From assembly GCF_054482525.1 (NCBI RefSeq), contig NZ_CM137006.1: a DNA stretch of 64,000 nucleotides; one strand, 5' to 3'. Shown here piece by piece: positions 3,800 through 35,490 of the stretch (position 1 is the first letter of the stretch; each line of letters begins with the position of its first letter). The notes below the pieces were generated by a model. It had not been told where the DNA came from. It searched no databases and worked only from the letters and a program-made list of their open reading frames with translations. The position numbers were made by a program, and so were the translations under genes.

Positions 3800-3900
3800 T
3801 TGATGCCGGATGCGGCGTGAATTCCTTATCCGGTCTACAAAATTTGCAAATCCAAAGCATTACATTAAGACGTGGCCTGATAAACATATCGCATCAGGCC
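3800..3900. repeat. REP/BIME palindromic units (gccggatgcggcgtgaattccttatccgg; ggcctgataaacatatcgcatcaggcc)
   Basis: Characteristic REP motifs in yjdF-melB intergenic region. Confidence 0.75.
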
Positions 3901-23766: not shown

Positions 23767-23782
23767 TTGTATTGTGATCGGT

Positions 23783-23862
23783 AAGCCGGATAAGGCGCTC
23801 GCGCCGCATCCGGCAACGATGCCGACAGCCTGATGCGACGCTGACCGCGTCTTATCAGGCTT
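23783..23862. repeat. REP/BIME cluster (two REP palindromes)
   Basis: gccggataaggcgctcgcgccgcatccggc and gcctgatgcgacgctgaccgcgtcttatcaggc motifs. Confidence 0.75.
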
Positions 23863-23925
23863 CCCTCTCATCTGTATAAATTTCGAACTACACTTAACTG
23901 GCTTCTCTTAACTGAGGTCACCATC

Positions 23926-26331: not shown

Positions 26332-26334
26332 TGT

Positions 26335-26452
26335 GCTCGATCGGTCCCCTCTCCCTTGAGGGAGAGGGTTAGGGTGAGGGGGAAATGCGCACGCTGATGC
26401 CCTCACCCCGGCCCTCTCCCACAGGGAGAGGGAGAAAACATTAAACGGAGCA
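26335..26452. repeat. GC-rich palindromic intergenic repeat (Box C/RSA-like; units cccctctccc…gggagaggg and ccctcacccc)
   Basis: Read directly; a permuted inverted copy occurs at 35336..35490. Confidence 0.7.
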
Positions 26453-26456
26453 ATAT

Positions 26457-27236
26457 ATGCAAACCATCACCATCGCCCCACCCAAGCGCAGCTGGTTCGC
26501 GCTTCTGAGCTGGGCCATTGTTCTCGCCGTGCTGGTCGTCTCGTGGCAGGGCGCGGAAATGGCCCCGCTCACGCTGATTAAAGGCGGCGGCAACATGGCG
26601 ACGTTCGCCGCCGACTTCTTCCCGCCCGATTTCAGCCAGTGGCAGGATTACCTCACCGAAATGGCCGTCACGCTGCAAATCGCCGTCTGGGGCACCGCGC
26701 TGGCGGTGGTTCTCTCCATCCCCTTTGGCCTGATGAGCGCCGAAAACCTGGTGCCGTGGTGGGTTTACCAGCCCGTTCGCCGCCTGATGGACGCCTGCCG
26801 CGCCATTAACGAGATGGTCTTCGCCATGCTGTTCGTGGTCGCCGTCGGTCTCGGTCCGTTCGCTGGCGTACTGGCGCTGTTTATCCACACCACCGGCGTG
26901 CTCTCCAAACTGCTTTCCGAAGCGGTAGAAGCAATTGAACCCGGCCCGGTGGAAGGTATTCGCGCCACCGGTGCCAACAAGCTCGAAGAGATCCTCTACG
27001 GCGTGCTGCCGCAGGTGATGCCGCTGCTGATCTCCTACTCCCTCTATCGCTTCGAATCCAACGTCCGTTCGGCCACCGTTGTTGGCATGGTCGGCGCGGG
27101 CGGGCTCGGCGTCACCCTGTGGGAAGCGATTCGCGGTTTCCAGTTCCAGCAAACCTGCGCCCTGATGGTGCTGATTATCGTCACTGTCAGCCTGCTGGAT
27201 TTCCTCTCTCAACGGTTGCGTAAGCACTTTATCTGA
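26457..27236 (+). CDS. phnE: Phosphonate ABC transporter permease PhnE, uninterrupted 259 aa ORF
   Basis: Continuous ORF with EAA-type permease region; no frameshift seen. Confidence 0.88.
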
Positions 27237-30080: not shown

Positions 30081-30918
30081 TCTGAGCGGCTACAACTTTG
30101 CTTACCTCGACGAGCAGACCAAACGCATGATCCGCCGCGCCATCTTAAAAGCGGTGGCGATCCCCGGTTATCAGGTGCCGTTTGGCGGGCGCGAGATGCC
30201 GATGCCGTACGGCTGGGGAACTGGTGGTATCCAGCTAACCGCCAGCGTGATTGGCGAAAGCGACGTGTTGAAGGTGATTGACCAGGGCGCGGATGACACC
30301 ACCAACGCCGTGTCGATTCGCAACTTCTTTAAGCGCGTGACCGGGGTAAACACCACTGAACGTACGGACGATGCGACGCTTATCCAGACGCGCCACCGCA
30401 TCCCCGAAACGTCGCTGACCGAAGATCAGATCATTATTTTCCAGGTACCGATCCCCGAACCGATGCGCTTTATCGAGCCGCGCGAAACGGAGACCCGCAC
30501 TATGCACGCGCTGGAGGAGTACGGCGTGATGCAGGTGAAGCTGTATGAAGATATCGCCCGCTTCGGTCATATCGCCACCACCTATGCCTATCCGGTGAAG
30601 GTGAACGGGCGCTACGTGATGGACCCGTCGCCGATCCCGAAATTCGATAACCCGAAAATGGACATGATGCCCGCCCTGCAACTGTTCGGCGCGGGGCGCG
30701 AGAAGCGCATCTATGCGGTGCCGCCGTTTACCCGCGTGGAAAGCCTCGATTTCGACGATCACCCGTTCACCGTTCAGCAGTGGAATGAGCCATGCGCCAT
30801 CTGCGGATCGACCCACAGCTATCTTGATGAAGTGGTGCTGGATGACGCCGGAAACCGCATGTTTGTCTGCTCCGATACCGATTATTGCCGCCAACAGAGC
30901 GAGGCGAAAAGCCAATGA
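30073..30918 (+). CDS. phnJ: C-P lyase catalytic subunit PhnJ (radical SAM-like, Cys-rich C-terminus), 281 aa
   Basis: MANLSGYNFAYLDEQTKRMIRRA…; C-terminal CxxC…C…C cluster. Confidence 0.92.
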   Translation: MANLSGYNFAYLDEQTKRMIRRAILKAVAIPGYQVPFGGREMPMPYGWGTGGIQLTASVIGESDVLKVIDQGADDTTNAVSIRNFFKRVTGVNTTERTDDATLIQTRHRIPETSLTEDQIIIFQVPIPEPMRFIEPRETETRTMHALEEYGVMQVKLYEDIARFGHIATTYAYPVKVNGRYVMDPSPIPKFDNPKMDMMPALQLFGAGREKRIYAVPPFTRVESLDFDDHPFTVQQWNEPCAICGSTHSYLDEVVLDDAGNRMFVCSDTDYCRQQSEAKSQ

Positions 30919-31673
30919 ATCAACCGTTACTTTCGGTCAATAACCTGACCCACCTTTACGCGCCGGGCAAAGGCTTTAGCGATGTCTCTTTTGATTTATG
31001 GCCGGGGGAAGTGCTGGGCATTGTCGGGGAGTCCGGCTCCGGGAAGACCACGCTGCTGAAATCAATCTCCGCGCGCCTGACGCCGCAGCAGGGGGAGATT
31101 CGCTATGAAAACCGCTCCCTCTATGGCATGAGCGAAGCCGACCGCCGCCGTTTACTGCGCACCGAATGGGGCGTGGTACATCAGCATCCGCTCGACGGCC
31201 TGCGCCGCCAGGTGTCGGCAGGCGGCAATATCGGCGAGCGGCTGATGGCGACCGGGGCGCGTCATTACGGCGACATCCGCGCCACCGCGCAGAAGTGGCT
31301 GGAGGAGGTGGAGATTCCCTCCAACCGGATCGACGACCTGCCGACCACCTTTTCCGGCGGTATGCAGCAACGTTTGCAGATTGCCCGCAACCTGGTGACG
31401 CATCCGAAGCTGGTGTTTATGGACGAGCCAACCGGCGGGCTGGATGTATCGGTACAGGCGCGCCTGCTCGATCTGCTGCGCGGTCTGGTGGTGGAGCTGA
31501 ATCTGGCGGTGGTGATTGTCACCCACGATCTGGGCGTCGCCCGCCTGCTGGCGGACCGTTTGCTGGTGATGAAACAGGGGCAAGTGGTGGAGAGTGGGTT
31601 AACCGACCGCGTGCTCGACGACCCGCATCATCCGTATACCCAGCTGCTGGTGTCATCGGTTTTGCAGAATTGA
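30915..31673 (+). CDS. phnK: ABC-type ATPase PhnK, 252 aa
   Basis: Walker [10 protein letters not shown]; start at [15 protein letters not shown]. Confidence 0.9.
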
Positions 31674-31677
31674 GCCA

Positions 31678-31765
31678 GTGCCGGATACGGCGTAAACGCC
31701 TTATCCGGCCGACAAATGCGCTCCCCGTAGGTCGGATAAGACGCGTCAGCGTCGCATCCGACACC
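31678..31765. repeat. REP/BIME cluster inside phn operon (between phnK and phnL)
   Basis: gccggatacggcgtaaacgccttatccggcc and gtaggtcggataagacgcgtcagcgtcgcatccgac palindromes. Confidence 0.8.
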
Positions 31766-31783
31766 CGAACCACGAGGCGAAAA

Positions 31784-32464
31784 ATGATTAACGTACAAAA
31801 CGTCAGTAAAACCTTCATCCTGCACCAGCAAAACGGCGTGCGCCTGCACGTCTTACAACGTGCCTCGCTCACCGTCAACGCAGGCGAATGCGTGGTGCTC
31901 CACGGCCACTCCGGCAGTGGAAAATCAACCCTGCTACGCTCGCTGTACGCCAACTATCTGCCCGATGAAGGTCAAATCCAGATCAAACACGGTGATGAGT
32001 GGGTAGACCTGATCACCGCGCCAGCCCGCAAAGTGGTGGAGATCCGCAAAACCACCATCGGCTGGGTGAGCCAGTTTCTGCGCGTCATCCCGCGTATTTC
32101 GGCACTGGAAGTGGTGATGCAGCCTCTGCTCGATACCGGCGTACCGCGTGAAGCCTGCGCCGCTAAAGCCGCGCGTCTGCTCACCCGCCTGAACGTGCCT
32201 GAACGCCTGTGGCACCTGGCACCATCGACCTTCTCCGGCGGCGAACAGCAGCGCGTCAACATCGCCCGTGGCTTTATCGTCGACTATCCGATTCTGCTGC
32301 TCGACGAACCTACCGCCTCGCTGGACGCTAAAAACAGCGCCGCCGTAGTGGAACTGATCCGCGAAGCCAAAGCCCGCGGCGCGGCCATCGTCGGTATCTT
32401 CCATGACGAAGCCGTACGCAATGACGTCGCCGACCGCCTGCACCCGATGGGAGCCTCTTCATGA
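31784..32464 (+). CDS. phnL: ABC-type ATPase PhnL, 226 aa
   Basis: [11 protein letters not shown]…, Walker [10 protein letters not shown]; start at ATG 31784. Confidence 0.9.
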
Positions 32465-33597
32465 TTATCAATAACGTCAAACTGGTGCTGGAAAATGAAG
32501 TGGTGCACGGTTCACTGGAAGTACAGGATGGCGAAATTCGGGCCTTTGCCGAAAGCCAGAGCCGCCAGCCGGAAGCGATGGACGGCGAAGGTGGCTGGCT
32601 ACTGCCCGGACTGATTGAGCTGCATACCGACAACCTCGATAAATTCTTCACCCCGCGCCCGAAAGTCGACTGGCCCGCCCATTCGGCGATGAGCAGCCAC
32701 GACGCGCTGATGGTGGCAAGCGGCATCACCACCGTACTGGACGCCGTGGCGATTGGTGATGTGCGCGACGGCGGCGATCGGCTGGAGAATCTGGAGAAGA
32801 TGATCAACGCCATCGAAGAGACGCAGAAACGCGGCGTCAACCGCGCCGAGCACCGCCTGCACCTGCGCTGCGAACTGCCGCACCACACCACGTTGCCGCT
32901 GTTTGAAAAACTGGTGCAGCGCGAACCGGTGACGCTGGTATCGCTGATGGACCACTCGCCAGGCCAGCGCCAGTTCGCCAATCGCGAGAAGTATCGCGAA
33001 TATTATCAGGGCAAATATTCCCTCACCGATGCGCAGATGCAGCAGTACGAAGAAGAGCAATTGGCGCTCGCCGCACGCTGGTCGCAGCCAAATCGCGAAA
33101 CCATCGCCGCAATGTGCCGCGCGCGACACATTGCCCTCGCCAGCCACGATGACGCCACGCACGCCCACGTTGCCGAATCTCACCAGCTTGGCAGCGTGAT
33201 CGCCGAATTTCCCACCACGTTCGAAGCGGCAGAAGCCTCGCGCAAGCATGGCATGAACGTGCTGATGGGCGCGCCGAATATCGTGCGCGGCGGTTCGCAC
33301 TCCGGCAACGTGGCGGCCAGTGAACTGGCGCAGCTTGGCCTGCTGGATATCCTCTCTTCCGACTACTACCCCGCCAGCCTGCTCGATGCGGCATTTCGCG
33401 TCGCCGATGACGAGAGCAACCGCTTTACGCTGCCGCAGGCGGTGAAGCTGGTGACTAAAAATCCGGCGCAGGCGCTTAATCTTCAGGATCGCGGAGTGAT
33501 TGGCGAGGGCAAACGCGCCGACCTGGTGCTGGCGCATCGCAAGGGCAACCACATTCATATCGACCACGTCTGGCGTCAGGGTAAAAGGGTGTTCTGA
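32461..33597 (+). CDS. phnM: Amidohydrolase-family PhnM (ribosyl-triphosphate diphosphohydrolase), 378 aa
   Basis: Metal-dependent hydrolase motifs (HTD…); operon position. Confidence 0.9.
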
Positions 33598-35335: not shown

Positions 35336-35490
35336 TGGGAGGGAATGTGCGCGCTGGCCCCCTCACCCTAACCCTCTCCCCAGAGGGGCGAGGGGACCGA
35401 TTGTGCTCGATATTGAATATTGCGCTGGTTTTCTCCCTCGCCCCATTGGGGAGAGGGCCGGGGTGAGGGGCGATGCCTGCTCCATACCCA
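35336..35490. repeat. GC-rich palindromic intergenic repeat, inverted and module-permuted relative to 26335..26452
   Basis: Shares cccctcaccc / ccctctcccc / gggagaggg / gtgctcgat modules with the phnD-phnE repeat. Confidence 0.7.

Follow-up and report, generated by a model that had tools for sequence, protein, structure and literature searches.

What is a pair of REP sequences doing in the middle of an operon, among genes (phnG to phnP) that otherwise lie almost end to end? The stretch of DNA analysed here – 64,000 nucleotides of contig NZ_CM137006.1 (assembly GCF_054482525.1), hereafter the window – is a segment of an E. coli chromosome with the 14 genes of the phn operon on its + strand; positions 31500-31950 match strain PCN033 at 100% identity. 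The succession of genes is broken between phnK and phnL by a gap containing two REP palindromes. The initial annotation saw in these palindromes a possible mRNA stabiliser or partial terminator, one that would set different stoichiometries for the core complex encoded upstream and for the products of phnLMNOP. An alternative is that the repeats are mobile elements tolerated at a place where they damage nothing. We address the issue through the structure of the element, its variation within E. coli, the state of the same junction in other species, and published expression data.

Results

A single Y-Z2 pair of REPs separates phnK from phnL

Taken from the gene translations, the distances between neighbouring genes are 0 nt (F/G), −4 (G/H), −1 (H/I), −8 (I/J), −4 (J/K), +110 (K/L), −4 (L/M), −1 (M/N), −14 (N/O) and +1 (O/P). 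The overlaps of 1 to 14 bp initially described on either side of the gap hold for every junction except that of phnO and phnP, which lie 1 nt apart; K/L is the only sizeable gap within phnG-phnP but not within the whole operon, where phnD and phnE are separated by 125 nt. The 110-bp separation of phnK and phnL and the two palindromes that occupy it are both confirmed (Table 1), and the gap in K-12 MG1655 has the same length. A start for phnL further upstream was considered and rejected: the frame stays open through the gap and back to 31166, but 31674-31783 contains no in-frame ATG, GTG, TTG or CTG (and no in-frame stop codon). Because the gap lacks an in-frame start, the annotated ATG, with GAGG 6 nt upstream, stands.

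Table 1. Features of the phnK-phnL junction, with positions in the window
Feature	Position	Strand	Remarks
phnK CDS	30915-31673	+	252 aa; TGA stop 31671-31673; translated reading frame
phnK-phnL intergenic gap	31674-31783	+	110 nt
REP1, Y-type palindromic unit	31680-31713	+	hairpin 31680-31709 plus tail GCCGAC (GCCTAC in K-12)
Linker between REP tails	31714-31726		13 nt, AAATGCGCTCCCC; without IHF consensus
REP2, Z2-like unit, inverted	31727-31762	-	GTAG tail 31727-31730 plus hairpin 31731-31762; reverse complement GTCGGATGCGACGCTGACGCGTCTTATCCGACCTAC
3′ spacer with phnL Shine-Dalgarno	31763-31783	+	GAGG at 31774-31777; invariant in 10 E. coli alleles
phnL CDS	31784-32464	+	226 aa; ATG start; 4-nt overlap with phnM

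Both palindromes have the attributes of REP sequences, which are the most frequent palindromic repeats of E. coli and are taken here as imperfect palindromes of ~35 nt with the consensus …GCCGGATGCGGCG…CGCCTTATCCGGCCTAC and a GTAG/CTAC tail. The arms of REP1 (31680-31693 / 31696-31709), whose loop is comparatively short, are 93% complementary and those of REP2 (31731-31744 / 31749-31762) 86%; the tail motif CGYCTTATCMGRCCTAC is present with one mismatch in REP1 and none in REP2; and both units align with six other REP copies in the window. The pair is extragenic, lying wholly inside the 110-nt gap, and belongs to a multicopy family, the motif occurring eight times in 64 kb against 0.45 expected. 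In the alignment of window copies REP1 clusters with the Y-type units at 3822, 23781 and 57921, while REP2, oriented opposite to REP1, clusters with the Z2-type units at 23848 and 47435 (GATGCGACGCTG..CGCGTCTTATC); the names Y and Z2 follow the nomenclature of Gilson and Bachellier. The two tails point toward each other across the linker.

Units of types Y and Z2 in alternating orientation, joined by short linkers with characteristic motifs (S, l/r), are the components of a BIME-2, although such elements usually comprise several repeated pairs and the phnK-phnL gap holds one pair only. A BIME-1 (RIP/RIB) would combine Y and Z1 units with an IHF consensus in the linker; since no match to that consensus (WATCARNNNNTTR) occurs in 31674-31783, and the linker is so short, an IHF-binding BIME-1/RIP was rejected. 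To judge from its sequence, the element consists of one Y and one Z2 unit of the BIME-2 kind, tail to tail and without an IHF site. The two REPs could also pair with each other in the manner of a REPIN, an element moved by a RAYT (tnpA-REP) transposase (arms 31697-31713 / 31727-31743, 17 nt, 82% complementary), but the minimum-energy fold favours two separate hairpins over one long REPIN hairpin.

A comparison with Rfam family RF02564 (naRNA4) gave best scores of 40.9 and 39.0 bits, below the gathering threshold of 59.5, and otherwise only sub-threshold REP-related or spurious miRNA-like matches were returned; the naRNA4 similarity is read here as a reflection of common REP sequence and not as family membership. 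No repeat features are listed in the K-12 RefSeq feature table; we expect the pair to be part of the genome-wide K-12 REP catalogue. The element is of a known kind, and the roles of mRNA stabiliser and attenuator are textbook functions of REPs. A further inverted repeat (31658-31668 / 31803-31813, 11 nt, 82% complementary) flanks the whole gap; it is probably due to chance. In the 141-nt fold it is another short helix, between 31660-31665 and bases just before the phnL ATG, that closes the gap.

The gap is predicted to fold into two stable hairpins without a terminator signature

RNA folding, which the initial annotation had proposed as a check, predicts two stable hairpins. The gap as a whole has a predicted free energy of −48.4 kcal/mol (z −4.8; none of 200 shuffled sequences was as stable), REP1 with short flanks (31674-31720) of −21.5 kcal/mol, and the REP2 half of −24.2 kcal/mol; with flanks added to the gap the value is −51.7 kcal/mol (z −3.7). 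Between the end of the phnK stop codon (31673) and the start of the REP1 stem (31680) there are 6 nt. The predicted fold leaves the Shine-Dalgarno sequence of phnL, GAGG, essentially unpaired, 11 nt past REP2.

A T-run is missing after both hairpins (the sequences that follow are CGACAAAT and ACCCGAAC), and a scan of 30800-32600 found no terminator-like site on the + strand. An intrinsic (Rho-independent) terminator was rejected on these grounds. An internal promoter for phnL was likewise rejected: the scan found no + strand promoter-like site for this gene, and the phnLMNOP ‘TSS’ of PMC3734233, which comes from an uninduced sample, falls inside phnL by our own conversion of the older genome coordinates.

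The junction is occupied by alternative repeats within E. coli

The 110-nt REP-pair form is carried by 4,842 of 5,426 complete E. coli genomes (89%). In a further 546 (10%; STEC384 is an example, locus L002, 475-650) the junction holds a 176-nt filling, an inverted pair of BoxC/PIT/TMECO repeats recognised by the consensus given in PMC4666352; two genomes, RMDEC465 among them (locus L003, 475-641), carry a 167-nt allele with three REPs. These counts leave about 6 of the 5,396 matching E. coli genomes unclassified, and no empty-site allele was found among the E. coli sequences sampled. The REP and BoxC alleles have nothing in common but the stop codon at one end and GAACCACGAGGCGAAAA-ATG at the other, GAACCACGAGGCGAAAA being the last 17 nt of the 3′ spacer. 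A 207-nt stretch spanning the BoxC gap is predicted to fold with −99.5 kcal/mol (z −7.4). In the three-REP allele of RMDEC465 the first REP is of the E. coli type, and the last REP, together with the 5′ end of phnL, resembles Citrobacter werkmanii, which points to a recombination joint within the cluster.

Repeats of the BoxC kind are found elsewhere in the phn region of the window. The phnD-phnE gap (26332-26456; 125 nt with the start of the 259-aa phnE) contains an inverted BoxC/PIT/TMECO pair at 26347-26432, with a predicted fold of −72.8 kcal/mol (z −7.3); phnE is here an intact 259-aa frame (26457-27236), and a pseudogene (phnE1) in the K-12 annotation. A second inverted BoxC/TMECO pair, at 35360-35469, lies directly downstream of the operon (phnP stop, 35335) and attracts spurious Rfam matches to miRNA precursors. 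All four BoxC copies of the 64-kb window are at phn.

Is the REP pair decaying? Ten alleles taken across the identity range show 8 segregating sites over the 110 nt of the gap, a nucleotide diversity of 0.024; at third codon positions of the neighbouring phnK and phnL, where 38 of 112 sites segregate, diversity is 0.12 and 0.15. None of the ten alleles has lost any of the 24 stem pairs: the two pairs that vary do so on one side only and in wobble-compatible fashion (C-G to U-G; G·U and A-U), and two other hairpin substitutions fall in loop or internal-loop columns of the alignment. Across ~5,400 genomes conservation of the 110-nt gap is at least that of coding flanks of equal length on both sides. 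The REP pair is well conserved within E. coli and is not decaying junk. Its conservation fits selection for function and gene conversion among REP copies equally.

The phnK-phnL junction has been colonised repeatedly in other species

A scan with PhnJ yielded 80 loci from different species, E. albertii and E. fergusonii not among them, in each of which phnK, phnL and phnM were located. The phnK-phnL spacer is greater than zero in 71 of 78 species and zero or less in seven (median 22 nt), whereas phnL and phnM abut or overlap in 59 of 75 (median −4). The unoverlapped K-L junction is therefore a general trait of the operon and not a peculiarity of E. coli. (Gaps between phnJ and phnK were not used because automatic phnK starts are unreliable in other species, many being GTG or TTG picks.)

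Many relatives, including congeners of REP-bearing species, have a K-L spacer of just 7-15 nt. In some Enterobacteriaceae it consists of a Shine-Dalgarno sequence only: in Leclercia (TAA-GAGGCGAAC-ATG), in Citrobacter sp. FP75 and Cedecea neteri (9 nt), and in an Enterobacter metagenome-assembled genome (7 nt). Elsewhere the same junction is expanded by repeats. Lineage-specific REPs occupy it in Citrobacter werkmanii (107 nt, two REPs), Enterobacter asburiae (160 nt, three REPs), Cedecea sulfonylureivorans (81 nt), Kluyvera (67 nt) and strain RIT691 (55 nt), and several Pseudomonas and Stutzerimonas species have hairpin repeats of their own (82-337 nt). Each such repeat could be newly inserted, or could occupy an old site that has become homogenised with the REP population of its genome. 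The comparison nonetheless gives robust grounds for the view that hairpin repeats turn over rapidly at a permissive site, and it identifies the phnK-phnL junction as a putative landing site that has been colonised repeatedly.

In Pseudocitrobacter faecalis DSM 27453 the K-L gap measures 298 nt and contains four BoxC-like units; PhnJ, K, L and M of this strain are 98-99% identical to those of E. coli, other genera being far less close, and the operon may have been transferred recently. Three expansions were left out as non-repeat or artefact. In two of them, Yersinia thracica (locus L022, 5159-5234, 76 nt) and Y. artesiana (L024, 5159-5216, 58 nt), the spacers contain short direct repeats (e.g. 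CTGTCCATCAAACCC / CTGTCTATCAAACCCC) and no hairpins (about −5 kcal/mol), and could represent another type of repeat or a mis-called phnL start. In the third, Salinicola tamaricis (L059, 4334-5286), the apparent 296-nt gap holds sequence resembling the 3′ part of phnK, which appears to be frameshifted or truncated in that assembly.

Transcripts cross the REP pair

In samples starved of phosphate for 2 h and 4 h, directional RNA-seq assembles a single 14-gene phn transcript that crosses the REP, with coverage that declines along the operon (PMC3734233). In the same study assemblies restricted to phnGHIJK or to phnLMNOP appear only in uninduced or heat-shock samples, at very low coverage, and a REP may itself break a low-coverage assembly for technical reasons, reads that match repeats being poorly mapped. 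Fold changes of phn genes between ΔphoB and wild type (PMC7657598) are noisy, rest on very low counts and are uninformative as to a step in coverage; phn genes are not listed in the RepRanger supplements.

As for the proteins, PhnK and PhnL bind the core complex as a double dimer, giving Phn(GHIJKL)2, and neither ATPase activity is dispensable in vivo (PMC9947105); C-P lyase activity depends on phnL and phnM (PMC3734233). The proposed division between a core complex encoded upstream and products encoded downstream is consequently blurred, because PhnL takes its place in the complex alongside PhnK; the fall in coverage along the operon does accord with unequal output. The suggestion of an mRNA stabiliser or partial terminator likewise survives in part: the REPs are genuine, their predicted hairpins stable and the analogues documented, but the signature of an intrinsic terminator is missing and the 14-gene transcript reads through.

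Discussion

A critical issue is whether the REP pair is at the phnK-phnL junction because of what it does or because of what the junction allows. The second reading seems to us rather more probable than its negation: the pair is best explained as a mobile-repeat insertion tolerated at a permissive junction, with modest and evolvable tuning of expression as a by-product – neither a terminator nor a conserved design. The ancestral junction would have been a short spacer with a Shine-Dalgarno sequence alone, so that a repeat could be inserted without damage to either gene. The pair, which lies after the phnK stop codon and ahead of the phnL Shine-Dalgarno, would be found here mainly because, the 1 nt between phnO and phnP aside, K-L is the sole junction of phnG-phnP without an overlap. 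As relatives make do with a spacer of 7-10 nt, and as 10% of E. coli carry a different repeat, the REP is not a conserved design feature of the operon.

Once in place the pair need not be without effect. Folded as two stable hairpins within the 14-gene mRNA, it would block 3′-to-5′ exonucleases and perhaps mildly attenuate read-through, the phnC-K mRNA then outlasting that of phnL-P. With the 9-nt spacer of REP-less relatives, translation of phnL could be coupled stop-to-start to that of phnK; the pair would break this coupling. Since the first hairpin starts 6 nt past the stop, ribosomes terminating on phnK may also stall, lowering the yield of PhnK. By analogy with other REPs these effects on decay and attenuation, coupling and stalling are likely, and an effect on gene dosage is plausible. 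Against the explanation of tolerated insertion stand the conservation of the gap, the retention of stem pairs and the lack of an empty-site allele among the E. coli sequences sampled, all of which fit selection as well as gene conversion.

These same observations sustain the main rival, a selected regulator of dosage: an intra-operon device whose hairpins are kept to hold the products of phnC-K above those of phnL-P through stabilisation of the upstream mRNA and partial, possibly Rho-assisted, attenuation. Compared with synonymous sites the REP pair is strongly conserved, with pairing fully kept; in the genomes sampled the E. coli site is always occupied by a stable hairpin, whether REP or BoxC; unrelated hairpin repeats were gained repeatedly at K-L in other lineages; coverage declines along the operon and the phnGHIJK and phnLMNOP sub-assemblies of low-expression samples divide at this point; and tandem gene pairs that contain REPs are upstream-biased genome-wide. 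We nevertheless regard selected regulation as possible but unlikely. Many relatives manage with 7-15 nt, congeners of REP-bearing species included; PhnK and PhnL, each of them essential, work as a 2:2 double dimer; the sub-assemblies are confined to very low coverage, where poor mapping of REP reads may have created them; and BoxC/PIT had no terminator activity in the earlier tests summarised in PMC4666352. A broader version of the argument – that a structured RNA barrier at phnK-phnL has been selected convergently, unrelated hairpin repeats being recruited independently and then conserved – would take in the Y/Z2 REPs and BoxC pairs of E. coli, the REPs of Enterobacter, Citrobacter and Kluyvera, and those of Pseudomonas. 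If true, the barrier would free the two C-P lyase ATPases from translational coupling to each other and would fix the balance between products of phnC-K and of phnL-P; we think this doubtful.

Termination or attenuation as the principal role, with a substantial fraction of RNA polymerases stopping in the gap, is improbable. The REP325 cluster, 8 kb upstream, does attenuate transcription into yjdN in a partly Rho-dependent manner, and 110 untranslated nucleotides could expose RNA to Rho; yet neither hairpin has a T-run, the + strand has no terminator-like site, highly structured RNA would make a poor loading site for Rho, the full 14-gene transcript is obtained from phosphate-starved samples, and C-P lyase activity needs phnL and phnM. 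Least credible of all, and very improbable, is a role at the level of DNA, the pair serving for example as a gyrase-binding BIME-2 or as a nucleoid-organising site that eases supercoiling in a long and strongly induced operon. BIME-2 elements have been reported to bind gyrase, the Y and Z2 composition resembles theirs, and REP1 and REP2 can pair with one another; but there is one Y-Z2 pair only and no IHF site, a non-REP element occupies the site in 10% of strains, and a preprint found neither chromosome compaction by REP325 nor long-range chromosomal contacts between REPs (bioRxiv 10.64898/2026.03.23.713779).

Taken on its own, the element is an unremarkable REP pair in an operon that has been studied well; what is added is modest and stems from comparing genomes. 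Different repeat families have colonised this one junction again and again, and the outcome is a natural allelic series: E. coli carries a REP pair in 89% of genomes and a BoxC pair in 10%, and close relatives have a bare 9-nt spacer. Such a series could be used to ask whether repeats within an operon tune how a multi-subunit enzyme is expressed or are no more than tolerated.

The effects that we attribute to the pair under tolerated insertion have precedents. In general, REPs keep 3′ exonucleases from degrading the mRNA that lies upstream, and transcripts terminated by Rho often have their processed ends at REPs (PMC6061677); REP-containing tandem gene pairs show upstream-biased expression across the genome, albeit with wide scatter (bioRxiv 10.64898/2026.03.23.713779). 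One close system is REP325, the source of naRNA4, which lies just upstream of phnC, between yjdM and yjdN in the window (REPs at 23781-23864). Like the phnK-phnL pair it is made of Y and Z2 units placed within an operon between two genes of the same direction; it makes yjdM mRNA more stable and partly curbs read-through to yjdN, in part through Rho (bioRxiv 10.64898/2026.03.23.713779). For REP325 the effect was shown by experiment, whereas for the two units at phnK-phnL it is proposed by analogy. The yjdM-yjdN gap is 159 nt with two REPs here (23767-23925) and 657 nt in K-12 (locus L001, 15743-16399), which points to strong copy-number variation at this experimentally studied REP cluster.

BoxC/PIT/TMECO (PMC4666352), the occupant of the same phnK-phnL site in 10% of E. 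coli genomes, belongs to a sequence family unrelated to REP (CCCTCNCCC...GGGNGAGGG); promoter activity, like terminator activity, was reported absent in the tests summarised there. In nrdA-nrdB a stop-proximal REP cuts upstream translation: ribosomes that terminate no more than 15 nt ahead of a REP can stall, with cleavage of the mRNA and tmRNA tagging of the protein encoded upstream (Liang, Rudd and Deutscher 2015, as summarised in PMC12306157). The REP1 stem falls within that distance, so that phnK is a candidate for the same effect. A further parallel is offered by malE-malF and hisJ-hisQ, where intercistronic REPs stabilise upstream mRNA (Newbury et al. 1987 and Stern et al. 1984, as cited in PMC6061677): in these operons, as in phn, REP hairpins without a T-run lie within a polycistronic mRNA and would be expected to act as a barrier to 3′ exonucleases. 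Unlike theirs, the REP of the phn operon parts two proteins that cooperate as a 2:2 pair.
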